A DNA stretch of 20,000 nucleotides from Chiloscyllium plagiosum (taxonomy: Eukaryota), in NCBI RefSeq assembly GCF_004010195.1, contig NC_057718.1, forward strand, positions 73,248,340-73,268,339, in the 5' to 3' direction. A program made the position numbers and the translations under genes. This document shows positions 3,622 to 19,701 of this stretch, piece by piece. Every line of letters starts with the position of its first letter. Within the stretch, counting starts at the first letter, position 1. The notes under the pieces are model-generated. The model made no database searches, was not told the origin of the DNA, and saw nothing but the letters and a program-made list of their open reading frames with translations.

Positions 3622-3721
3622 ATGGCTCGTTACATGAAGTGTGGAGGACTGGCTTTGGTTGTTCTATTCGTGGTAGAGCAGGGTGTGCGATCTTTCCCTG
3701 AAGTGGAGGCTGCAATACCAG
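3622..3721 (+). CDS. CGA: Glycoprotein hormones alpha chain, first coding exon: MARYMKCGGLALVVLFVVEQGVRS / FPEVEAAIP + first base of Gly
   Basis: ATG at 3622 in strong context (gcaggATGg), preceded by a pyrimidine tract and AG acceptors (3608-3609, 3619-3620). 33 codons + 1 nt, then donor AG|gtgaat (phase 1). The 24-aa hydrophobic signal peptide followed by FP-x7-G parallels mammalian alpha (e.g. FPDGEFTMQG). Joins in frame to 13662. Confidence 0.92.
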
Positions 3722-3835: not shown

Positions 3836-5640
3836 AACAAAGAACAAAGAACCTTACAGGACAGGAACAGGCCCTTCGGCCCTCCAAGCCTGAGCCGATC
3901 CAGATCCTCTATCTTAACCTGCCGCCTATTTTCTGAGGATCTGTATCGCTTTGCTCCCTGCCCATTCATGTATCTGTTTGGATACATCTTTAATGACGCT
4001 ATCATTCCCGCCCCTACTACCTCTGCTAGCAACACATTCCAGGCACCCACTGCCCTCTGCATGAAGAACGTTCCATGTATATCTCCCCTAAACTTCTCCC
4101 CTCTCACTTTGAACTCATGATCCCTTGTAATTGAGTCCTCCGTTCTGGGAAAAATCTTCTTGCTATCCACCCTGTCTACACCTCTCTTGATTTTGTAGGC
4201 CTCAATCAGGTCCCCCCTCAATTTCCTATTTCCAATGAAAATAATCCTAATCTACTCAACCTCTCCTCATAGCTAGCACCCTCCAGGCAACATCCTGGTG
4301 AACCTCCTCTGCACTGTCTCCAAAACATCCACATTGTATTGGTAATGTGGCGAACAGAACTGTACACAGTATTCCAAATGTGGCCGAACCAAAGTCTTAT
4401 ACAACTCTAACTTGAACTGCCAACTCTTGTACTCAATACCCTGTCCATTGAAGGAAAGCATGCTGTATACCTTCTTGACCACTCGACTGACCTGCATTGC
4501 CACCTACAGGGAACAATGGACCTGAACACCTGGATATCTCTGTACATCAATTTTCCCCAGGACTTTTCAATTTACTGTATAGTTCACTCTGGAATTACAT
4601 CTTTCAAAATGCATCACCTTTTATTTGTCCGGATTGAACTCCATCTGCCATTTCTCTGCCCAACTCTCCAATCTATCTATATTTTTCTGTATTCTCTGAC
4701 TGTTCCCTTCACTACCTGCTACTCCAGCAACCATAGTGTCATCTGCAAACTTGCTAATGAGGCAACCTACACCTTCCTTCAGATCATTTATGTATATCAC
4801 AAACAACAGTGGTCCCAGCACTAATCCTTGTGGTACACCACTAGTCACAGGTCTCCATTTTAAGAAGCTCCCTTCCACTACTGCTCTCTGTTTCCTGTTG
4901 CCCAACCAGTTCTCTATCCAACTAGCTAGAACAACCAGGACCCTATGCGACTTACCTTTCTTTATCAGCCTACCATGAGGAACCTTATCAAATACCTACT
5001 AAAGTCCATGTATATGACATCTACATCCCTTCCCTCATCAAGCAACTTTGTCACCTCTTCAAATAATTCTATTAGTTTTATACACCATGGCCTTCCCTGC
5101 ACAAAACCATGCTGTCTATCACTGATAAACCCATTTTTTTCCAAATAGGTATATATCCTATCTCTTAGTATCTTCTCCAGTCTTCTTCTACCACTGATAT
5201 CAGGCTCACGAGTGTGTAATTACCTGGATTATCCCTGCTACCTTCTTAAAAAGAGGATAACTTTAGCAATTCTCCATCCCTCTGGGAATTCTGCCAATTT
5301 TAAGGATGCTGCAAAGATATCGGGTAAAGCGCCAGCTATTTCTTCTCTCGGTTCCCTCAGCAACCTGGGATAGATCCATCCGGACCTGGGGACATGTCCA
5401 CCTTAATGCCCTTAGAAGACACACTTCCTCCCTCCTTATGCCGCCTTGACCTAACATCTATCCCTAACCTCAATATCTGCCATGTCTACTCTCTACAAAG
5501 TACTCATTAAGAATCTCACCCATTTTCTCTGACTCCATGCATATCTTTCCTCCTTTGTCCTTGAGGGGGGCCAACTCTTTCCCTAGTTACCCTCTTGCTC
5601 TTCATATATGAATAAAAGGCTTTGGGGTTTTCCTTAACCC
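3836..5640 (-). mobile_element. CR1/HER1 LINE, 5'-truncated (RT domain to 3' tail), decayed
   Basis: VTSGVPQGLVLGPLLFVIYINDL...ISKFADDT; YKTLVRPHLEYCVQF; RGDLIEAYKI; tail aacaaagaacaaagaac and 3' motif ggcccttcggccc (3870-3882). Starts ~115 nt after the CGA donor. Confidence 0.95.
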
Positions 5641-6116
5641 TACCTTTGAGAAATATGATCATAATATGATAGAAGTCCGCATGCAGTTTGAATAAGATAT
5701 AATTATTCTAAAACAAAGGTTTTAGCTGTGGAAAAAAAATTGTGGAGATGAAGGGGCAGGTTGACTGTGGTGGATTGGAAAAAAAGATTTGAAAGAATTG
5801 CCAGTAAATAGGGAATGGTTAAGAAATATTACACAGTTTACAACAAATAAAGATTCACGTAAGGCACACACAACCAAAGGGTAAAACAACTTGTAATTAA
5901 CAAAATAAGCTAAAGAATGCATTACATCAAAGTAAGTATCTTGTCGAGATTTCAAACCCAGCAAAACTTGGGTAAAAAAACTGTAAGAAAGGAAAAAGAA
6001 TACAAGCTTGCAAGGAACATAAAAATAGATTCTGAAGGCTTCTTTATATCTGTGAAAAGGAAAAGCTTAGTTAGAACAAATGTAGGCATGTTACAAGTGG
6101 GAGCAGAGAACTTAAA

Positions 6117-6355
6117 TTCTGGATCAGTGGTGCTGGAAGAGCACAGCAATTCAGGCAGCATCCGATGAGCAGCAAAATCGACGTTTCGGGCAAAAGCCCT
6201 TCATCAGGAATAAAAAGCTTTTTATTCCTGATGAAGGGCTTTTGCCCGAAAAGTCGATTTTGCTGCTCGTCGAATGCTGCCTGAATTGCTGTGGTCTTCC
6301 AGCACCACTGATCCAGAATCTGGTTTCCAGCATCTGCAGTCATTGTTTTTACCCC
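6117..6355 (+). mobile_element. Penelope-like fold-back insert: 204-bp palindrome (6116-6319) + 36-nt tail, 14-bp TSD
   Basis: 102-bp arms centred on aaaaag|cttttt (6217/6218), about 4 mismatches; gcagagaacttaaa at 6103-6116 and 6356-6369. Confidence 0.88.
6180..6207 (-). ncRNA. Minimal type I hammerhead ribozyme motif (mirror copy on + strand at 6228-6255 has one substitution)
   Basis: CUGAUGA-A-GGGC uuuu GCCC-GAAA-CG-UC; helix III reduced to palindromic ACGU; helix I weak. Activity not shown. Confidence 0.65.
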
Positions 6356-9300
6356 GCAGAGAACTTAAAGTAGAGATAAGGAAATCGCAAAGAAGTTAAC
6401 AGTTACTCAGTGTTTGACTTTATAGAGAAGACATACTGAATGTTTCCCAGAAATACTAGGCAACCAATGGACTTGTGAAATTGAGGAACTACAAGACATT
6501 AGTATTAGTTGAGAATTATTACTTAAAGCCAACTGGATTGCAAGTTGGCCTATCCCTGAACCATAGAGATTTCTACGTATGAGCATTAAAGGAGATGGCA
6601 AAACAGATAATGGATGCAATGGTGAATATCTTTCAAAATTGTGGAGATCCTGGAAAAGTGTCTGGGGCTTAGAAAGTGAAAAATATAGCTCTCCTTTTCA
6701 AGAAAAGAGGATGAAGGAGAATGGAAACCACAGACTTGTCAGTTTGATATCAGTTATAAAGAAAATGTGAGAATGTGTTACAAGGAAGGATAAAATAACT
6801 AGATATTTAGAAAATAATCAACAAATTGAACATGTATTTAGGAAGAGGAAGTCTTACTGACAAACCTATTAGGGTTTTTGGGATATACTTGTAGCATTGA
6901 TGCAAGAAAATCATGGATGCAGTGTATTTGGATTTTCAGAAGGCTTTTTGAGGTCCACTCTGGTGGCTAGCAAATAAAGTTAGAGAACATGGAATTGGGG
7001 GAAATATACTCATATGAATTGAGAATTGTTTAACAGGCAGAAAGCAGAGAATGGAGTAATTGGACCATTTCAGGATGCCAGGCAGTTACTAGTGAGATAC
7101 TGCAAGGATTGGTGCCACATCCACAGCTTTGCACAATGTATACAGATGATTTGGATGTTAGAGTACTTTTTCTGGGCCAAGTAGTTTTGTTTCTAATTTT
7201 GAATTGTGTCAAATCTTTTAGAATGTTTTTCACCATAAGGACAAATGGGTTTTCTTGACCTATCTTATCAAACCTGCCTGATTAATTACCACTATGCCCC
7301 TTGCTTCATTAATTACGGCTATGCTCTCATGTCCAATCTCTACCTCCTTTTGCCATGTACCTTTCATGGAACATCTTGCCAATCTGAGGATATACATTGA
7401 AAGATTACAATGTGAGTGTGCCAACTTTGAAAGTATTGACTATGCAGTGTTGCTCCTCATCAATAGCATGATCGCATAGCAGGTATGAAGCCACACTGTC
7501 TAAAATATATAGTTTGCATGGCTAACATTCCCGCACATATACAACCCCATTCTCTCACCTTAGCCACTGTTTAACCACCATGCTACACATTTTACCTGCC
7601 TACATCCCGATTGAAAAACGTCTCTAAATCATTGGGATCCTGATGCCCACTGTAGATCTGAATCTTGTAATTGTCCGGTAGAGGAACATCACATATGGGC
7701 AAGCAACTGGAGAAATACAAATGTAAGCTTTCTTTTATAGAAAATAAACAAATTCAGCAGAGGTAAACTTTGGCCCCACAACACCATCTAGATTTCTGCA
7801 CCATGATCAAACATTATTTTATAGTTAGCGACTGTGTGCTACACCAAGTTGTCTTACCTTGAAACCAGATGTCAATGAGAGACTGCCAGGCTTGTAGAAC
7901 CAGTGATAGTTGAGCTCTGTCATGGACAATGTCAGCTTCTTCATCCCCAGTGTCACCATCTCCTTCAGAAGAACATTAGTCACTTTTCCCAATTCCTCTG
8001 CATCTAGTATATCACCTTATCACCTGCTCCAGTTCTGCAGGGCAAAACATATCAGGACAATACAATACACTTTATCTGGTCTATACTTGAAGGCAGCAAA
8101 ACTGGATCTTCAAGAGACCTATACACTGTTCCATCAAGTCTCTACTGAGGCATTGACAGCATTAAACCTGTGTTCTGCATCAATATAGAATGGTGAGCAC
8201 AGGAACAGGTCCTTTGGCCCATCATGTCTGTGCCGACTATGATGCCATTCTAAACTAATCACATCTCCCTATTCGTTTAGTCCCTGTCTTTTCATGTGTT
8301 TATCTAAATGCCTTTTAAACTTTGCTAACGCATCTGATTCTACCACCGCCCTGCTAGCATGTTTCAGGTATCTATCACTCTCTATGCAAAAAACCTCTCC
8401 TTACACAACTTTGTGAAATGTTTTTCCTTTCATCTTAAATCTATGCCCCGAGTATTTGACACTTACACCCTGGGAAAAAGAATCCAACTATCCACCCTCT
8501 CCATATCTCTCATAATTTTACATACTTTTATCAGATTGCCCTCAGCCTCCAATGCTGCAGCAAAAACAATCCAAGTTTGTCCAACTCTTCCTCATTGCTA
8601 ATACACTCCAATCCAGGCTACATCCTGGTAAACCATTTTTACACCCTCCATAAAGCCTTCATTTCCTTCCTATAGTATGGTGACTAGAACTGTACACAAT
8701 ACTCCAAATGTAACTTAGCTAAAATCTTATACAGGTGCAACATGAATTGCCAACTTTTATGCTCAATTCCCCTACAACTGAAGGCAAGCATGCCAACCAG
8801 CTTCTTTAACAGGTTATCTATATCTGTTGCCTCTTTGTTGAACTTCGCGATTTCTTTATATATCTATTTTCCTAAGGATCCTGTCTATGTTCCTCTTCCA
8901 TTTGACCTCCCAATGATTCAACTCACACTTTTCTGAATAAAACTCTATCTACCATTTCTCCCCTGATCTTTCAAACTGATTTATAACCTCCTTCACTGCC
9001 CACAACTTCACCAATTTTTGTAATTTGAGAACTTTCTAATCAGACCACCTACATTTTCATCCAAAGCATTTACATTTATCACTAATAATAGAAGCCCCAG
9101 CATTAATGCTTGCAGAATATCGCTGGTTACAGATCGCCAGTCAGAAAAACACCCTTCAACAATTACCCTCCATCTTCTACGATCAAGCCAATCTTGTACC
9201 AAATTGCTATTCACCATTGATTCCATGAGACTTAATCTTCTGGATCAGCCTACCATGAGGGATCTTGTCAAATACTATGGTAAAGTCCATACAGACAGCA

Positions 9301-9656
9301 TCCACTGCCCGATCATCAACAATCATTTCGTCACTTCCGCAAAAATCTTAATTTGGAGACGCTGGTGTTGGATTGGGGTGTATAAAGTTAAAACTCACGT
9401 AACACCAGGTTATAGTCCAACAGATTTATTTGGAAGTACTAGTTTTTGGAGCACTGCTCCTTTATCAGGTGATTGTGGATTATAAGATCATAAGACAGAA
9501 CTTATAGCAAATGTTTACAGTGTGATGCAACTGAAATGATATTTTAAAAAGACCTGGATTGTTTGTTATGTTTCTCATCTTTTAGAATGGCCATGTTGGT
9601 TTCAGTTCTTTCATATGTAAATCCCAGAACATTTTTTAAAGTTGCATTCTCATTTG

Positions 9657-9912
9657 AGATTAGATTAGATTCCCTACAGTGTGGAAATAGGCCCTTTGGC
9701 CCAACAAGTCCACACAGACCCTCTGAGGAGTAACCCACCCAGACCCATTTCCCTCTGACTAATGCACCTAACACTATGGGCAATTTAGCATGACCAATTC
9801 ACCTGATTTGTACATCTTTGTGACTGTGGGAGGAAACCGGAGCACCCGGAGGAAACCCGGAACCCTGGTGCTCTGAGGCAGCCATGCTAACCACTGAGCC
9901 ACTGTGCTGCCC
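9657..9912 (-). mobile_element. HE1-like tRNA-derived SINE (V-SINE type), internally deleted
   Basis: Minus-strand head gggcagcacagtggctcagtggttagc (A box); core gggtttcctccgggtgctccggtttcctcccacagtc; LINE-like 3' end gggccaaagggcc and (aatct)n tail. Confidence 0.88.
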
Positions 9913-10060
9913 TGATGAAAGACCTGAAACCAACAAGGTCATTCTAAAAGATGAGAGCCTTAACAAGCAATCCAGATCTTTTTAAATATATCATTTCAGT
10001 TGCATCACATTGTAAACTTTTGCTATAAATTCTGTATCTTATGATTTTATACTCCACAAC

Positions 10061-10095
10061 CACCTGATGAAGGAGCAACACTCTGAAAGCTAGTG
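10061..10095 (+). ncRNA. Minimal type I hammerhead ribozyme motif in the PLE arm
   Basis: cac-CUGAUGA-A-GGAGcaacaCUCU-GAAA-GC-UA-gug: helix I cac/gug, helix II GGAG/CUCU, palindromic AGCU helix III. Confidence 0.65.
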
Positions 10096-10564
10096 CTTCC
10101 AAATAAACCTGTTGGACTATAACCTGGTATTGTGTGATTTTTAACTTCAAAAATTTTAATCACCTTTGTGAGACAAAACCTACCCCACATAAAGCCTTGC
10201 TAACTATCTCTAATAATTTGATTCTTCTCAAAATGCGAGTAAATCCTATACCTAAGAATCATCTCAGATAATTTCCCTACAATCAACATGCCTCCAGTGA
10301 AAGATCCCATCACTGTTAGTGAAAAAGACTTAAATTGAACACAGGAGGAGCAAAAGAGTTTCTTTGGTCTCAGAATAGTTATTGATATTGTACCTTCCGG
10401 ATGAGGAATCCTGGGTGTGGATAAGAGGACATTTGTCTGTCTTTATGTGCAGCAACTTGTTGAAGATGTCCTGCTGGCTGAGTGACTATCACATGTCATT
10501 GAAAAGGGTGTGCCTGCAGTGCAGCACCATCATCTGCCTGGTCCCTCATTAATGTATCACCCCA

Positions 10565-10691
10565 GGCAAGGCTATGGATCAAGTGCTAGAAAGTGGAATT
10601 AGAATAGTTAAGTTGATATTTTTGACTGACCAAGATGTGATGGGCTGAAGGATCTTTTTCTGTGCTGTAGATCTCTGAGTTTATGAGTCTA
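10565..10691 (+). mobile_element. CR1-type 3' UTR remnant
   Basis: ggctatggatcaagtgc...gggctgaaggatc...tctgtgctgtagatctctgagtttatgagtcta resembles the 3' ends of other CR1 copies here. Confidence 0.7.
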
Positions 10692-11007
10692 GATGCCAAG
10701 CCTCAGAATGCGTTCAGCATAGTAATTGTGGCACTTGCAAGGATGTTATGTTGTCTTTGTGCCGTTATTGCTGATAATTTCAATAGTGTTGAGAGAACCG
10801 AATTCAATTTGCGAGCATCTGTGACATGTAGCAAATCAACTCTGAGCAGCTGCTATCCTTAAGCTCCTTCACTGTACGTGTCTAGCAAATGGGTAATGAA
10901 ATGATTGCTAATCCCATGCAGCCAAACTTTGCACATGTATTCACCCCATTCACCTTGATTTTTCCACCACTCACTATCCTTATCACCACTTCTACATGCT
11001 TCTCTGC

Positions 11008-12210
11008 TTTTTTTCAATTCACTTGTGAGTTGTGGGCATCATTGGCTGTTCCAATATTTATTGCCCATTCCTTGTTGCCCATAGTTGGTGAGCTGCCGTT
11101 TTGAGCAGCTGCAGACCGTATACTGTAGGCAGACCCATAATGCTGTTAGGGAGTGAATCCCAGAATTTTAAACCAACAACAGTGAAGGAACAGAGATAAA
11201 TTTCTCAGTCAGAATGGTGAGTGGCTTGGAAGGGATCTTGTCTGTGATAGTGTTCCTGTGTATCATGTATGTGGCCTTGTCCTTCTAAATAGAATTGGTC
11301 ATGGGCTTGAAAAATGTTGTCTAAGAAGTGTTAGTGAATTTCTGCAGGGCATCTTACAAATCGGACATTCTGCTACTTCTGAGCATTGCTGGTGGAGGCA
11401 GTGGATATTTGTGGATGTGGTGCCAATTAAGCTGCTGGTGTTGTTGGAGATGCACTTATCCAGACAAGAGGGAGTATTCCATCACCTGGCTTGTACCTTA
11501 TAGACAGGATTTGGTTAGTCAGGATGTGAGTTACTCGCTGTGGTATTCCTAGCCCTACGTATATATGACTAGTCCAGATCAGTTTCTTGCTAATAGTAAC
11601 CTCTAGGATGTTGATAGTGGGAGATTCAGGGATGGTAATGCCATTGAATGTCAAGGGGTGGTGGTGAGATTGTCTTTTGTTGGAGACAGTCATTACATGG
11701 CATTTGTGTGACACTAATGTCACTTGCCACTTTTCAGTCCTGTGTCTGCATGGGTTTCCTCCTACAGTACTCCGACAGTCCAAAGATGTGAAGGTTAAGT
11801 GAATTGGCTATGCCAAATTTCCCATTGTGTCCAGGGATGTGATGGCTAGGTGTATTAGTCATGGGAAATTCAGGGGGTTAAGGTAGGGGGAGGATCTGAG
11901 TGGGATGCTCTTTGGAAGGTTGGTGTGGACTCGATAGATCAAATAGCTTGTTTCCACACTGTAGGGACTCTGTGACTTAAGTATTTGGATATGGACTGCT
12001 TCAGTATCTGAGGAGATGCGAACAGTGCTGAAAATTGTTCAATCAACAGTGGACTTCTCCACCTCTGACTTTATGATGGAGGGAAGATCATTGATGATCC
12101 AGTTGAAGATGGTTGGGCCTCAGACATTACCCTGATAAACTGTAGAGATGTCCTGAAGCTGAGATGACTGACAGCCAACAACCACTCTCATCATCCTATG
12201 TGCCAGATAC
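11008..12210 (-). mobile_element. LINE 3' portion of a second CR1/L2-group family, interrupted by a SINE
   Basis: EKWQVTLVSHKCHVMTVSNKRQSHHHPLTFNGITIPESPTINILEVTISKKLIWTSHI (RT C-terminal region); RT continues at 11976-12210. Clade assignment uncertain. Confidence 0.75.
11738..11975 (+). mobile_element. HE1-like SINE, 5'-truncated
   Basis: tgtgtctgcatgggtttcctcc...cagtccaaagatgtg...gtgtggactcg...gtttccacactgtaggga, homologous to the SINE at 9657-9912. Confidence 0.85.
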
Positions 12211-12784
12211 AATTCCCTCATCACTTCTGTCATTGATGTCCCCTCTTCCCCTATAGCTCCCCTTTTGAACCCTTCAGAAAGTTTGATGGAAAGACACATA
12301 TGACTGTATTCATCCCAGACTTCTGACTGGCCTTGATGAACACACCCTAGATGCAGTTGACAACACCATTGACTCCTGTGTTTAGAGGTCCCCTACTGAA
12401 AACATTTGATTCCCCAGACTACTTCTGCTGACACTGCAGGATTGATTGCTGAACATCCCCTGTACTGTACCTGGACTGATCCCCGATCATGAGTGTCTCA
12501 AGTGGGCCACTGAATTTGTTGGAGTCCCTGGACAGTGCATAGACTGTGACCATGACTGATGGCACCAGGACTCCCTGACTGGCAGCACATCACCCATTCA
12601 CTCTACTGAGGACTAGCCTCTGACATGATCATTTGTGTGTAATGTGATTGCATCTCAGGCAGTTGACAGACTGTGTTAGATTGGCATCTTGGCATGCCCC
12701 TCAGAACAATACCATACTGACAAGCAGCCTGTCTAAGTGCCTGCACTGAAGAGCACTTAAAAATGGTAGTAGCAAAAGACTTTT

Positions 12785-12911
12785 CTCCACAGCTATCTGA
12801 TGAAGGAGCAACGCTCTGAAAATTAGTGCTTCCAAATAAACCTACTGGACCATAACCTAGTACTGTGTGATTTTTAACTTTGTCCACCCCAGTTCAACAC
12901 CGGCACCTCCA
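12785..12911 (+). mobile_element. Solo Penelope-like 3' end (same family as 9353-10147) with hammerhead motif at 12794-12828 and tail
   Basis: ctgatgaaggagcaacgctctgaaaattagtgcttccaaataaacc...tttttaactt matches ~10053-10147; followed by tgtccaccccagttcaacaccggcacctcca, close to the reverse complement of tail 9353-9384. Confidence 0.85.
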
Positions 12912-13394
12912 CATCATGCCGGAATAGAGGCAATCTTTCCAAATAACCAGCTTTGGTGCTGTGGGACTTCATTCCATTTAGAATAAAAACAGAAAGACCA
13001 ACAAGATCTCACCACTCACATCCTGTCACCTGCTGGCACACTACCCATGCCCAATGCTTCTTCCAACCTCCTATGGCCCTTCATTACTTCATAACTGGAT
13101 ATGCCTCCTCAAACACCCCCATGTCATTCATGTCACCATTGCAAATTATGCCCTCAAATAACCTGATTGGTCTATCCTGCAGCCTTATGACAGGCTATTC
13201 CTATGGTGATAGTTTGATATGTATATTAAGTTTAAGCAAAATCATATAATTTTCCACTGTGTTTAAAAAAATACTTCTTTCAATACAAGGCAATAAAAAT
13301 ATCAATCAGATGGCAGAGATCAAATAGCCAAAGCTTTCAATCAAACAGGGACTTGGTTCTTTCAATAAATAGTGGATGTCAGTGTTCTCAGCGA

Positions 13395-13542
13395 GGTTGA
13401 CAAGCAGAAGGCTAAGAGAACACAGCAAGCCAGGCAACATCAGGAGGTGGAGAAGTCGACTTCTTCACTTCCTGATGCTGCCTAGCTTGCGGTGTTATCC
13501 CAGCCTCCTGCTTGTCTATTTTGGATTTCAGCATCTGCAGCA
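13395..13542 (+). mobile_element. Penelope-like fold-back insert: 118-bp imperfect palindrome (13399-13516) + 26-nt tail, 10-bp TSD
   Basis: 59-bp arms centred on gtc|gac (13457/13458); ttctcagcga at 13385-13394 and 13543-13552; the arm matches the start of the PLE at 19108. Confidence 0.82.
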
Positions 13543-13661
13543 TTCTCAGCGAAGCATACATAATAAGAAAACAAATTACCAGTGCCTTTCTATGTAGTTT
13601 GTTGTAAATGCAGTATTTGGAAGAATTATTCAGTTTGTTCTTCATCTTTTTCTCTGTGAAG

Positions 13662-13846
13662 GATGTCCAGACTGTAGACTGAAGGAGAACACACGTTTCT
13701 CAAGAGCAGGGGCACCCATCTTCCAGTGTAAAGGCTGTTGTTTCTCCCGTGCTTATCCAACGCCAATGCGGTCCAAGAAAACAATGCTGGTTCCAAAGAA
13801 TATCACTTCAGAAGCAACATGCTGTGTAGCTAAATTATTTTCCAGG
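13662..13846 (+). CDS. CGA: Glycoprotein hormones alpha chain, second coding exon: (G)[61 protein letters not shown]
   Basis: Manual translation gives the alpha-subunit signatures [13 protein letters not shown] and [22 protein letters not shown], with N-glycosylation sequon NIT. Acceptor ttcttcatctttttctctgtgaag|, donor agg|gtaaga. 185 nt, phase 1 to phase 0, as in the tetrapod gene. Confidence 0.98.
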
Positions 13847-14387
13847 GTAAGACATCTGGATGAAGTCAAAAATTTTATTGCAAGAACAGACAATAAAATG
13901 TAATACATATAAGATATGGCAGTCTCGGAAATGGTTGAAGAGCTCCTCTTGTGAGCTTTTAGATGTTGAATTCTAATGCCTTTCATTAAGTAGGACACAA
14001 GTGTGGAAAGGATGCAATCATTACTGTGGTGTGCTTTTGCTGTTAATGCAGCTGCTGTTATTCTTTGTTATTTCTGCCCATTGTATCCCATCCATTTTAA
14101 ACTTTATTACAAAGGAAATATAATCTCATGTTTGCACAGATCTTTTCACACTTTCCACCACCTCTCCTCCCTTGTCCCTGAGATAAATAGCTAGTCTGCA
14201 ACTGCCTTCTGTCTCTCTCTGTGTAATGTAATTTCCCTACCCATGTCTGAGCAATAAAGGTAAATAAGGAGGTGGCAAACTGGTGAATCGGAGAGGGATC
14301 TGGAAGAAATGTAAACTTTAATGCAAACCCAAATGTAAATGAAATGCAAGAAGAGCATTGGAAAGAATAAGGTAACAGAAGACATTG

Positions 14388-14805
14388 AATTTTTTTTCTT
14401 TTCTCTGTGGATGTTGCTGGCAAGGCCATTTGGTTCCTATGCTGAAAATGTGTTGCTGGAAAAGCGCAGCAGGTCAGGCAGCATCCAGGGAACAGGAGAA
14501 TCGATGTTTCGGGCATAAGCCCTTCTTCAGGAAGGGCTTATGCCCGAAACGTCGATTCTCCTGTTCCCTGGATGCTGCCTGACCTGCTGCGTTTTTCCAG
14601 CAACACATTTTCAGCTCTGATCTCCAGCATCTGCAGACCTCACTTTCTCCTCCATTTGGTTCCTATGCCTAATTGCTCTTGAAAGAGTGGCTTGCTCAGT
14701 AATTTCAGAGGACTGTTAAAAGTCAATCACATTGCAATGGATCTACAGTTACATGCTGGCCAGACCAGGTAAGGATAGCAGATTTCCTTCCCTAAAGACA
14801 TTGCA
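14388..14805 (-). repeat. Decayed interspersed repeat whose left part resembles the terminus of the 11008 LINE; host of the insert 14441-14651
   Basis: T-rich start then gctggcaaggccattt...cctaattgctcttg resembles 11008-11085; continuous across the TSD. Family not identified. Confidence 0.5.
14441..14651 (+). mobile_element. Penelope-like fold-back insert: 85-bp arms (14441-14525, 14531-14615), 5-nt loop, 36-nt tail, 15-bp TSD
   Basis: Only 2 arm mismatches seen; ccatttggttcctat at 14426-14440 and 14652-14666 (17 bp with shared gc); minus strand reads CUGAAGA-A-GGGC uuau GCCC-GAAA-CA-UC. Confidence 0.88.
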
Positions 14806-14811
14806 GGATAG

Positions 14812-15040
14812 TATCACAAAAATCCTAGAATCCTTACAATGTGGAAGCAGACCATTTGTCCCATCAAGTCCACACTAAGCCTTTGAAGAGCATCCTGCCC
14901 AAACCAACCCTGTAACCCTGCATTTCCCATGGTTAATTAATCTCCAAACTCCATACAGACAGTTACCCAAGTCTGAAGTTGAACCCAAGTCCGTGGCACT
15001 ATGAGGCAACAGTGCTAACTACAGAGCCACCATAGCACCC
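14812..15040 (-). mobile_element. HE1-like tRNA-derived SINE, internally deleted
   Basis: Minus-strand head gggtgctatggtggctctgtagttagc (A box) ... gggttcaact (B box); 3' end like 9657-9740. Confidence 0.82.
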
Positions 15041-15602: not shown

Positions 15603-17351
15603 GAGCTATTGAGCTGTACAGCATGGAAACAGACCCTTTGTCCAAGTTGCCATATCGACCAGATATCCTAAATTAATCAAGTCCCCTTTGCCAGCATGTG
15701 GCCCATATTCCTTTAACCCTTTTCTGTTTATATACCTATCTAGGTGCCTTTGAAATGTTGTAATTGTACCAGCCTCCACCACTTCCTCTGGCAACTCATT
15801 CTGTGCACACACCACCCACTCTGTGGAAGTGTTGCCCCTTTGGTCCCTTTTAAATCTTTCCCCTCTCACCTTAAACCTCAGCCCTCTAATTTTGATTTTC
15901 CCCAACTCGGAGAAAAGACCTTGGCTATTCACCCTATTCATGCCCCTCATGATTTTATACACCTCTGTAAAGTTACCTCTCAGCTTCCGACACTCCAGGG
16001 AGAATAACCTTAACGTATTCACCCTCTTATTATGGCTCAAATCCTCCCAATCCTGGCAACATCCTTGTAAATCTTTTCTGGACCCTTTAAAGTTTCAAAA
16101 CATCCTTCCTATAGCAGAAAGACCCGAAGTGAAAGCAGTATTCCAAAAGTAACCTAACCAATGTCCTGTATAGCCACAACATGACCTCCCAGTTCTAACA
16201 CAGTGCATTGACCAATAAAGGCAAGCATACCAAGTGCTTTCTTCACTCTTCTGTCTTCCTGCAACTTTACTTTGAAGGAAATATGAATCTGCACTCCAAG
16301 GTCTCTTTGTTCAGCAGCACTCCCTAGGACCTTGGCTTTTAGTGTCTCAGTCCTGCCCTGATTTATTTTTCCAAGATGCAGCACCTCACATTTATCTAAA
16401 TTAAACTCCATCTGTCACCCCTCAGTCCATTGGCCCATCTGATCAAGGTCCCATTGTGCTCTAAGGTAGCCTTCATCGCTGGCCACTACACCTCCAATTT
16501 TGGTGTCATCTGCAAACTTACTAACCAAACTTCCTATGTTCATGTCCAAATCACTTATATAAATTATGAAAAACAGTGGAACCAGCACCGATCTTTATGG
16601 CACACTGCTCATCACAGGCCTTGGGTTTGAAAAGCAATCCTCCAACACCAACCTCTGTCTTCTAGCTTCAAGCCAGTTCTGTATCCAAATGACTAGTTAT
16701 CCCTATATTCCATGAGATTTAACCTTGTTAACCAGTCTACCATGAGGAAACTTGTCAGTTGCCTGACTGAAGTCCATACAGACAACACCCATCGTTTTGC
16801 CATATTGACTGTATGATTGAATGAATGCAAAGATTGATTCATTGAATGAATCAGTACTCTTTGAAACTCCTTCAGAAAACTCAAGTTGGTGAGACATGAT
16901 TTCCCACACAAAGCCATGTTGACAATCCCTAAACAGTCCTTACCTTTCCAAATCATATAAATCCTGTCCGCTCCAACAACTTGCCCACCACAGATACCAG
17001 GCTCACCAGTCTATACTTCCTATCTTTCTTAAATAATGGCACCACATTAGCCAACGTCTGGTCTTCTGGCACCTCACCTATGACTATCGATGATATAAAT
17101 ATCGTAGCAAGGGGCCCAACAATCACATCCTTAACTTTCCTCACGGTTCTTGGGCACACCTGACCAGGTCCCAGGGATTTATCCACCTTTATGTATTTTA
17201 AGACATCCAGCACCTCTTCCTCTGTAATATGGACATTTTTCAGGATGTTGTTTTTTTCCCCACATTCTATATCTTGCATATGCTTCTTCCATATGTATCT
17301 CCACCATCTCCTGCAGTTCCACACATAGGCGGCCTTGCTGATCTTTAAGGG

Positions 17352-17431
17352 ATTCTGGATTAGTGGTGCTGGAAGAGCACAGCAGTTCAGGCAGCATCCA
17401 AGGAGCAGTGAAATCGACGTTTCGGGCAAAA
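17352..17431 (-). mobile_element. Single arm of the 6117-family Penelope-like element, truncated within hammerhead helix II
   Basis: attctggattagtggtgctggaagagcacagc...gacgtttcgggcaaaag nearly identical to 6116-6196. Confidence 0.88.
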
Positions 17432-17906: not shown

Positions 17907-19107
17907 AGAATTCTTTTAGATTCTCCTCAACCCTATTTGCCAAATCTATCTCATGTTCCCTTTTAGTCTGCGTCATTTTCCTCTTAAGTATACTTTTACT
18001 GCCTTTATGCCCTTACTGGTGATTCCCTCCATTCCAGCTGTCTGCACCTTCTTGTGTCTTCTTTTTCTTGACCTTAACTTCCTGAGTCATCCAGCATTCC
18101 CTACAACTACCAGTCTTACCCTTCACCCTAACAGGAACATACTGTCTCTGGACCCTAGTTATCTCATTTTTGAAGGCTTCCCATTTTCCAGCCATCCCTT
18201 GACCAGCAAATATTGCCCCCAATCAATTATCGAAATTTCCTGCCTAATACTCTCAAAATTGACCTTCCTCCAATTTAGAATTGTAAATTCTAAATCTAGT
18301 CTATCCTTTTCCATCACTATTTTAAAAACTAATAGAAGTATGAACACTTGCCCCAAAGTGCTCCGCTTTGACATCTCGGTTACCTGCCCTACCTTATTTT
18401 CCAAGAGTAGGTCAAGTTGTACTCCTGCTCTAGTAGGTACATCCACATACTGAATCAGAAAATTTTCTTGTATTCACTTAACAAATTGCTCTCCATCCAA
18501 ACTCTTGACACTATGGCAGTCTCAGTCTATGTTTAGGGAGTTAAAACTCCCTACCATTACCACCTCATGATTCTTACAGATTACTGAGATCTCTTTACAT
18601 TTTTTTTCTCAATTTTTCACTGACAATTTGGGGGTGTGTGGAGGTGATTATCATTTTCTTATTTCTCAGTTCCATGCAAATAACTTCACCCTGGATGTAC
18701 CCTCAGGAATATCCTCCCTAAGTACAACTGTAATATTATCCCTAAAATAAACTCCCCTTCCTCTCTTGTCCTTATTGTGCTTCCCATAGCATCTGTGTCC
18801 TGGAACATTAAACTGCCAGTCCTGTCTATCCCTGAGCCATGTCTCTGTAATTGCTATGATATCCCAGTCCCATGTTCCCAACCATGCCCTTAGGACGCCT
18901 GCCTTACCTGATAGGCCTGTTGCATTGAAAGAAATGCAGTTTAATTTATCAGTCCTACCTCATTCTCTGTTTTGTTCCTGTTGCCTTAACTGTTTGACTT
19001 GCCCCTGTTCCCAACTGCGCCAGTCTCAGACCCTTTCTCACTATCTCCCAGGGTCCCATCCCCCACCAGTTAAAATCATCCCGAGCAGCTCTAGCAATTC
19101 TCTCCAG

Positions 19108-19434
19108 TAGACAAACAGGAGGTTGGAAGAACACAGCATCAGGAGGTGGAGAAGATGACGTTTCGAGTGTAAACCCTTCTTCAGGAGTGGGAGCAGCTGT
19201 AAGGTGAGCAGCAGATAAAGGGGGTTGGGAGTGCAGGATGGTACAAACTGGGTTGGTTGATGAAAGGAATGAGTCTGGCTGATGGCAAGAAGGAAGGGCT
19301 GATGAGAGGAATGGGAGGGAGCGGGGAGGGACTGGGAAGGGAGTTGGGTGATGGGAAGGATGATTATTTGAAAGTGGAGAACTCAATGTTGAATCCTCCA
19401 GGCTGTAGGCTGCCCAGGTGGAATTTGAAGTGTT
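19108..19434 (-). mobile_element. Penelope-like element 3' fragment: ORF C-terminus, pyrimidine-rich UTR, hammerhead motif (19157-19184)
   Basis: HFKFHLGSLQPGGFNIEFSTFK* (stop 19364-19366) resembles the PLE GIY-YIG C-terminal LxxLxPxGxN motif; CUGAAGA-A-GGGU uuac ACUC-GAAA-CG-UC. Confidence 0.85.
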
Positions 19435-19701
19435 AGAACATAGAACATAGAACATAGAACATAGAAGAATACAGCGCAGTACAGGCCCTTCGGCCCTCGA
19501 TGTTGCGCCGATCCAAGCCCACCTAACCTACACTAGCCCACTATCCTCCATATGCCTATCCAATGCCCGCTTAAATGCCCATAATGAGGGAGAGTCCACC
19601 ACTGCTACTGGCAGGGCATTCCATGAACTCACGACTCACTGAGTAAAGAACCTACCCCTAACATCTGTCCTATACCTACCCCCCTTTAATTTAAAGCTAT
19701 G
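19434..19701 (-). mobile_element. Short, young-looking CR1/HER1 3' fragment with (tagaaca)4 tail
   Basis: tagaaca x4 from 19434; ggcccttcggccc at 19484-19496; FFTQ*VVSSWNALP on the minus strand; many CpGs retained. Confidence 0.9.

Follow-up and report, generated by a model that had tools for sequence, protein, structure and literature searches.

The typical Penelope structure consists of inverted pseudo-long terminal repeats (pLTRs), one of which carries a 31-bp tail, together with a 9-bp target-site duplication (TSD; PMC3846280, Arkhipova et al. 2013). The same inverted-pLTR layout is drawn in Fig. 2 of PMC8557442 (Craig et al. 2021), which lists the origin of the tandem and inverted structures of Penelope-like elements (PLEs) and of their tails as undefined, and it is named as a curation pitfall in PMC8969392. 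Four hairpin-shaped inserts (I1–I4) of this kind lie in a 20,000-nucleotide stretch of the genome of the shark Chiloscyllium plagiosum (contig NC_057718.1, positions 73,248,340 to 73,268,339; hereafter the window, in whose own positions all coordinates are given). They are extremely 5'-truncated PLE insertions belonging to two unrelated sequence groups. The initial annotation of this DNA had stated that PLEs often insert as inverted repeats with a 3' tail, which PMC3846280 and PMC8557442 bear out, and had proposed an under-described system, a claim that falls to the same two papers: the architecture is already known, and the shark families are a correct catch of a published layout. The main gain is that such elements can be annotated correctly, where they would otherwise be classed as miniature inverted-repeat transposable elements (MITEs) or hairpin RNA genes.

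As in the published insertions of endonuclease-bearing (EN+) PLEs (PMC3846280, PMC8557442), the pLTRs stand head to head, with a one-sided tail of ~30–40 nt, a palindrome at the junction and a TSD. The published TSDs are about 8–10 bp long, whereas those of the shark inserts span 10–17 bp; moreover, the shark arms are reduced to the pLTR module without an open reading frame (ORF) between them, and one family reaches ~10^5 copies. With the Poseidon element PAc of Anolis carolinensis (Frangieh et al. 2024, PMC11167929) the shark inserts share the hammerhead end GAAACGUC, with the cut placed after it, a tail and AT-rich flanks. PAc and the I2 family have in common a short CACAACC...CTGA motif immediately ahead of the core (one match against none in 200 shuffles, the pattern having been picked post hoc). 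Unlike PAc, I1, I3 and I4 may link to a Neptune-like endonuclease end, and no model of inverted products was found in the text of PMC11167929.

The minimal hammerheads of metazoan PLEs (Cervera and De la Pena 2014, PMC4209133) resemble the shark cores in their conserved core, the bulged base before helix II and palindromic 15.2–16.2 positions. Read towards the tail, the shark cores, which are predicted from sequence, comprise the conserved core, one bulged base, a helix II that at 4–5 bp sets them apart from the published motifs, and GAAA; as a whole they fit the PLE motif of that paper. Motif pairs on opposite strands 100–700 bp apart are reported in PMC4209133, where most motifs belong to truncated PLEs, and a search of one of its supplements turned up no sharks. 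Non-LTR retrozymes (bioRxiv 10.64898/2026.07.22.740005), which also occur in one cartilaginous fish, are likewise protein-less, hammerhead-bearing PLE derivatives, but they form head-to-tail tandem repeats, whereas the shark inserts are head-to-head, dispersed and TSD-flanked. Neither a two-primer PLE model nor a description of these shark families was found in a literature search that left most subscription journals, the older Penelope papers, Repbase and Dfam outside, of which the last three may describe both.

Layout and identity of the four inserts

All four inserts have TSDs, inverted arms and a one-sided tail of 26–36 nt, the arms being pLTR copies referred to as tailed or tail-less. In I1, the 14-bp left TSD (6103–6116, identical at 14 of 14 bases with the right TSD at 6356–6369) shares its final base with the tail-less arm (6116–6217, minus strand), which holds an intact minimal hammerhead core at 6184–6207 (minus strand). 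The tailed arm (6218–6319, plus strand; core at 6228–6251) and a 36-nt tail (6320–6355, plus strand) follow. The arms pair at 98 of 102 positions without a spacer, and their centre falls inside the self-complementary hexamer AAGCTT.

I4 is bounded by 17-bp TSDs (14426–14442 and 14652–14668) that agree at 17 of 17 bases, two of which are common to the arm and 15 lie outside it. Its tail-less arm (14441–14533, minus strand; core at 14507–14530, minus strand) and its tailed arm (14531–14615, plus strand) overlap by GAA, the first three nucleotides of the latter being common to the end of the former, and 14441–14525 pairs with 14531–14615 at 83 of 85 positions. The tail-less arm thus includes 14526–14533, template bases that the tailed arm lacks. 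The tail (14616–14651, plus strand) is 36 nt long, and its family-wide end lies at 14650–14652.

I3 is smaller, with TSDs matching at 10 of 10 bases (13385–13394 and 13543–13552), four unexplained nucleotides (13395–13398), a tail-less arm (13399–13457, minus strand), a tailed arm (13458–13516, plus strand) that pairs with it at 50 of 59 positions, and a 26-nt tail (13517–13542, plus strand). Minimal hammerhead cores were found in the pLTRs of I1, I2 and I4 and in two other copies; none remains in I3, which begins at the predicted hammerhead cut site.

I2 carries its tail on the left, so that its orientation is opposite to that of the other inserts. The left TSD (9340–9352; 12 of 13 bases shared with the right TSD, 10148–10160) is followed by a 32-nt tail (9353–9384, minus strand; 78% A+C on its sense strand, homologous to 12881–12912) and the tailed arm (9385–9653, minus strand), paired over 9385–9614 and unpaired over 9615–9653, a segment that would represent template from further upstream. 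The tail-less arm (9915–10147, plus strand; core at 10064–10088) is 86–91% identical to 9385–9614 over three ungapped segments. The centre of I2 consists of about 39 nt of unpaired sequence and a ~260-nt repeat resembling a short interspersed element (SINE; 9654–9912, minus strand), which may be HE1. The initial annotation, right about TSDs, palindromes and tails in all four inserts, is corrected here, as I2 has no clean fold-back. The SINE-like repeat, with related copies at 14826–14905 and 11781–11971, sits exactly between the two arms without a clear TSD (none longer than 4 nt was found); its capture during integration was considered and dropped, as a single case that cannot be told apart from a later insertion.

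As a chance control, exact direct repeats of at least 10 nt were absent from 1500 random pairs of 30-nt zones, which are narrower than the 60–70 nt zones in which the TSDs were sought. I1 and I4 are related, with a local score of 97 where shuffled sequences reach at most 27, and, with the more distant I3 (28–31 against 23–25), make up group A; I2 (14 against 23) is unrelated to the other inserts and represents group B. The inserts had been described as differing in sequence, which holds for I2 but not for I1 and I4, nor fully for the weakly related I3.

Several features of EN+ PLE insertions were recovered. The pLTRs of such elements are arranged directly or inverted, with an optional tail of 30–40 nt at one end, and the inverted arrangement with a single tail (36, 32, 26 and 36 nt, I3 being slightly short) occurs in four of four inserts; the TSDs vary in length (14, 13, 10 and 15–17 bp), and an empty site shows that I4 is a true insertion; and the 3' end is fixed (14650–14652 and 12911–12918), whereas the many joints seen in reads record variable 5' truncation. 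The hammerhead core pattern matched five times in the window and never in 200 shuffles, with a sixth core at 19184. Hence there is little doubt that the inserts are EN+ PLE insertions whose palindromes were formed insertion by insertion. Their earlier assignment to PLE retro-insertions rather than MITEs is supported by the TSDs, the empty site, the hammerhead cores and the asymmetric termini. No match to the I1/I4 family pattern was found in viral contigs, prokaryote genomes or metagenomes.

Empty site, copy number and centres in reads and contigs

Raw reads and contigs were analysed over 12700–14800, a range that holds I3 and I4 with I1 and I2 outside it, in four of 24 runs, from three sources referred to as organisms A (two runs), B and C. 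A 251-nt contig of organism C runs from 14271 to 14425 and then directly from 14652 to 14743, at a depth of 36 compared with 37 for single-copy sequence. Organism C therefore lacks I4 and has one copy of its target, which is the empty orthologous site that the initial annotation had suggested looking for. A contig of organism B ends at 14425 with 58 letters left over, which suggests that the site is empty there too, the second piece not being among the contigs listed, while contigs of organism A span both I4 junctions. I4 can also serve as a presence/absence marker between related sharks. For I3, both junctions are spanned in organism B and the right one in A and C, in keeping with its older arms (85% identity, compared with 98% in I4).

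Rough arm equivalents estimated from peak depth were ~86,000 for the I4 family, ~33,000 for group B and ~5,000 for I3-like sequences, with unique bins averaging 0.54-fold depth, and suggest about 10^5 copies in the genome. Short insertions are very numerous in this genome, and a single read can cover both junctions and the centre, which is where their value for the question of mechanism lies. The tail stops at a fixed point, with 34,568 loose read ends at 14650–14652 that lead into unrelated, AT-rich flanks. Read pile-ups stop similarly, at 12911–12918, in a solo tailed copy of the I2 family (12785–12918, plus strand; core at 12797–12821), for which neither an inverted arm nor a TSD was found.

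The centres, in contrast, vary among copies. Loose read ends in I4 occur at 14531 and 14533, and a single upstream template sequence continues the reads beyond these points, in 25,815 reads past 14533 and in 11,282 ahead of 14531. There were 1757 joints in all, and the 13 within I4, among the 15 listed, are all different. Reads that fitted wholly numbered 2,468 of 178,657, where a fixed unit of 211 nt would lead one to expect about 20%; the comparison provides an upper bound only, since the denominator takes in other repeats and both divergence and the loss of hairpins bias the figure. Plotting palindrome centres had been put forward as a way to tell a self-propagating unit from formation at each insertion, and the variable centres point to the latter. 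Of the two options then left open, the data favour extreme truncation products, given the fixed tail end and variable centres, over a non-autonomous hairpin class.

Some joints stand apart. The lopsided junction of 14533 to 14593 is seen repeatedly, in 35 reads with 28 starts, and the three contig sets contribute 8, 2 and 8 contigs that contain it. Either microhomology makes this a hot spot, or a small sub-lineage has been amplified. A group B tail end (12918) is joined tail to tail with an I4-family tail end (14651) in 13 organism B contigs and 10 organism C contigs but in neither of the two organism A runs; this is a multi-copy fusion of the two families. I4-family tails are likewise joined to each other (14651 to 14445) in 16 and 12 contigs of B and C, and in one read and one contig of A. 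At 14450, 6,495 reads leave I4 into one common other sequence, which is a sister subfamily differing just ahead of the tail. In I3, 237 raw reads pass from the tail-less end back to 13470 with two letters between (13470–13516), a head-to-tail repeat of ~49 nt of the pLTR end that occurs in part of the I3-like family.

Formation of the palindrome

The best explanation overall, and a very likely one, is that each insert stems from one retrotransposition in which the pLTR module was copied twice, head to head. An EN+ PLE would make each insert in a single event, truncation leaving only the terminal pLTR module (60–270 nt around the minimal hammerhead). Staggered target nicks 10–17 bp apart would each prime one antisense cDNA, the far start site giving the tailed arm and the near start site the tail-less arm. 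Both cDNAs would stop early, their 3' ends would anneal via 3–6 nt, and fill-in would then yield the palindrome, one tail and the TSD. A self-complementary word would produce a perfect centre, as in I1 and I3, and chance microhomology a lopsided one, as in I4. A comparable process is LINE-1 twin priming, where reverse transcription starts from the nicks on both target strands and microhomology links the resulting pair of cDNAs; the shark inserts contain the same terminal segment twice, whereas in L1 it is the upstream part of a single RNA that is inverted.

The two-primer step, in which each nick primes one cDNA, stands at an even chance. The centres are compatible with annealed antisense cDNA ends (AAGCTT in I1, GTCGAC in I3, the common GAA in I4). 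The bases 14526–14533 of I4 belong to the template, because the consensus of the loose ends shows them, and they lie in an arm bounded by a TSD that the empty site proves; their presence in the tail-less arm favours two nick-primed cDNAs over a cDNA folding back on itself. In vitro, the protein of a lizard PLE cleaves and extends both target strands, and reverse transcription has two start sites on the RNA, one on either side of the tail; the protein is predicted to be a dimer and prefers AT-rich sites (PMC11167929). The use of one start site per nick would leave an arm with the tail on one side, a bare arm on the other, and a TSD.

The strongest alternative accepts the same elements and differs in the joining step: one cDNA, or an antisense template, would fold back and prime itself, the tail would come from endonuclease resolution, and lopsided centres would reflect later deletion. 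We consider this possible, if on the doubtful side. Self-priming on an antisense template is what PMC3846280 proposes, and is thus the published reading of such palindromes; the perfect centres of I1 and I3 at self-complementary hexamers, and the longer arm of I2 being the tailed one, agree with it. The asymmetry of I4 would also result if a perfect palindrome had later lost sequence between GAA repeats at its centre, yet snap-back of the tailed cDNA could not supply the eight extra template bases of the tail-less arm. Among the 13 I4 joints listed, the antisense arm is longer in nine, with a sense arm 70–101 nt shorter, which fits fold-back poorly; in the other four the sense arm is the longer, as fold-back allows. 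Extension of both strands from two start sites in vitro (PMC11167929) likewise speaks for two primers.

A non-autonomous hairpin class, in which PLE proteins would insert transcripts of the whole palindrome with its tail at new sites, had been offered by the initial annotation and is now improbable. The great abundance of copies, at about 86,000 arm equivalents in the I4 family, and the recurrence of some junctions (14533 to 14593) would suit it, and non-autonomous PLE derivatives exist (MRC1, PMC8557442; retrozymes, bioRxiv 10.64898/2026.07.22.740005). Nevertheless, the template position of the centre differs in each of the four inserts in the window, most reads run past the centre of I4, at most 1.4% of reads fit wholly, and recurrent junctions amount to ~0.1% of depth. 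No centre shared by most copies was found, although minor sub-lineages of this kind may exist, and the inserts show none of the head-to-tail tandem hammerhead units of non-LTR retrozymes, all four being head-to-head. MITEs of a DNA transposon, which are also short, palindromic, TSD-flanked and very abundant, are already largely refuted and scarcely conceivable: symmetric terminal inverted repeats with a constant short TSD were not found, the TSDs being long and variable (14, 13, 10 and 15–17 bp), the termini asymmetric and the centres variable, and hammerhead cores and solo and half copies of the same sequence occur within the window.

Several points weigh against the reading of the inserts as truncated EN+ PLEs joined from two nick-primed cDNAs, besides the published self-priming proposal and the deletion route to I4's asymmetry. 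Short-read libraries under-sequence perfect hairpins, and divergence among subfamilies also causes partial read fits. The joints listed are 15 of 1757, those at 14533 are favoured since the reference arm stops there, and the reads are silent on whether the antisense arm lacks a tail. Two of the TSDs are only 50–53% A+T. Within the window, the I1/I4 and I2 sequences have no linked ORF for a reverse transcriptase (RT) or a GIY-YIG endonuclease, and the similarity of I3 to the longer I3-like copy described below and to I1/I4 is modest (28–37, compared with shuffled maxima of 23–25).

Tails, hammerheads and the rest of the window

The word CAGCATCTGCAG occurs three times, in the tails of I1, I3 and I4 (6328–6339, 13529–13540 and 14625–14636), against 0.10 expected at up to one mismatch, which confirms the 12-mer reported earlier. 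It is restricted to group A. The proposed function as an RT signal does not hold in general, because the I2 family lacks the word; within group A, a role in RT recognition is plausible. The first seven bases of the 12-mer are complementary to the other best-conserved block of group A, about 17 nt past the cut site (GATGCTG with CAGCATC), and for I2 a fold prediction has the tail pairing with the pLTR of the same insert by means of a different sequence. The 7-bp tail helix is paired in 20 of 21 cells, with no two-sided change (n = 3). Folding z-scores of the tail stem-loop gave no signal above shuffles (five of five between -0.6 and +0.5), and in single-strand folds I3 and the copy at 12785 favour other pairings, so the putative helix between tail and pLTR is a lead only. 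It is tentatively proposed, at somewhat less than an even chance, that these stumps record how PLE inverted repeats form: a dimer would prime two cDNAs from opposite nicks and join them by 3–6 nt annealing, and the tail paired with the block downstream of the cut site would be the structure recognised by the RT. If the two-primer and tail-pairing reading is true, ~10^5 natural copies make the formation of PLE inverted repeats directly testable.

The core of group A ends in GAAACGTC, which is also the end of the Anolis Poseidon template. The cut site of that template is given as 26 nt after the start codon (PMC11167929) and, by our own count, would fall after GAAACGTC. By analogy with PMC11167929, the centre of I3 (GTC/GAC, 13457–13458) may be in register with the predicted hammerhead cut site. 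A centre at the cut site as a general rule was rejected: it applies to I3 only, where the self-complementary GTCGAC explains it equally well, and is absent among the 15 of 1757 joints listed. An Rfam scan returned 28 matches up to E 10, none at the gathering score, the top ones being generic hairpins and sub-threshold microRNA matches.

The longer I3-like copy (19108–19436, minus strand) includes a GIY-YIG-like C-terminus, a 3' untranslated region (UTR) and the hammerhead core at 19184, and its tail-less end, near 19108–19110, matches that of I3. Its 22-aa frame (19367–19432; 19364–19432 with the stop) lies upstream of the 3' UTR and pLTR. The segment LGSLQPGGFNI resembles, by eye, the Neptune row ending in AGTLEPG-GLNR rather than any of the Poseidon rows shown in Fig. 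S2 of PMC8557442, so that the fragment resembles a Neptune-like GIY-YIG C-terminus, its clade being judged by eye only; the lack of a Pfam or PDB match for it adds to the points against an EN+ PLE origin. A half copy of the I1 subfamily of group A (17352–17431, minus strand) has the same tail-less end as I1 and is interrupted by another repeat.

The window is animal DNA with a glycoprotein hormone alpha exon among remnants of long interspersed elements (LINEs). This host exon (13662–13846, plus strand) matches Pfam Hormone_6 (E 4.5e-35) and has splice sites, and a candidate signal-peptide exon of the same gene was recognised at 3622–3721 from translation and splice sites only. The two lie ~9.9 kb apart, separated by an intron full of repeats. 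I1–I3 are located in the intron upstream of exon 13662–13846 and I4 in the intron downstream. Among the 29 of at least 99 window frames that were scanned, no PLE RT was seen, and two gave Pfam matches, to RVT_1 and Exo_endo_phos, in LINE remnants: 4621–4995 (minus strand; RVT_1, E 1.8e-17) and 18666–18959 (minus strand; endonuclease, E 6.7e-06). Related LINE pieces are repeated at about 4280–5000, 8600–9300 and 16050–16800.

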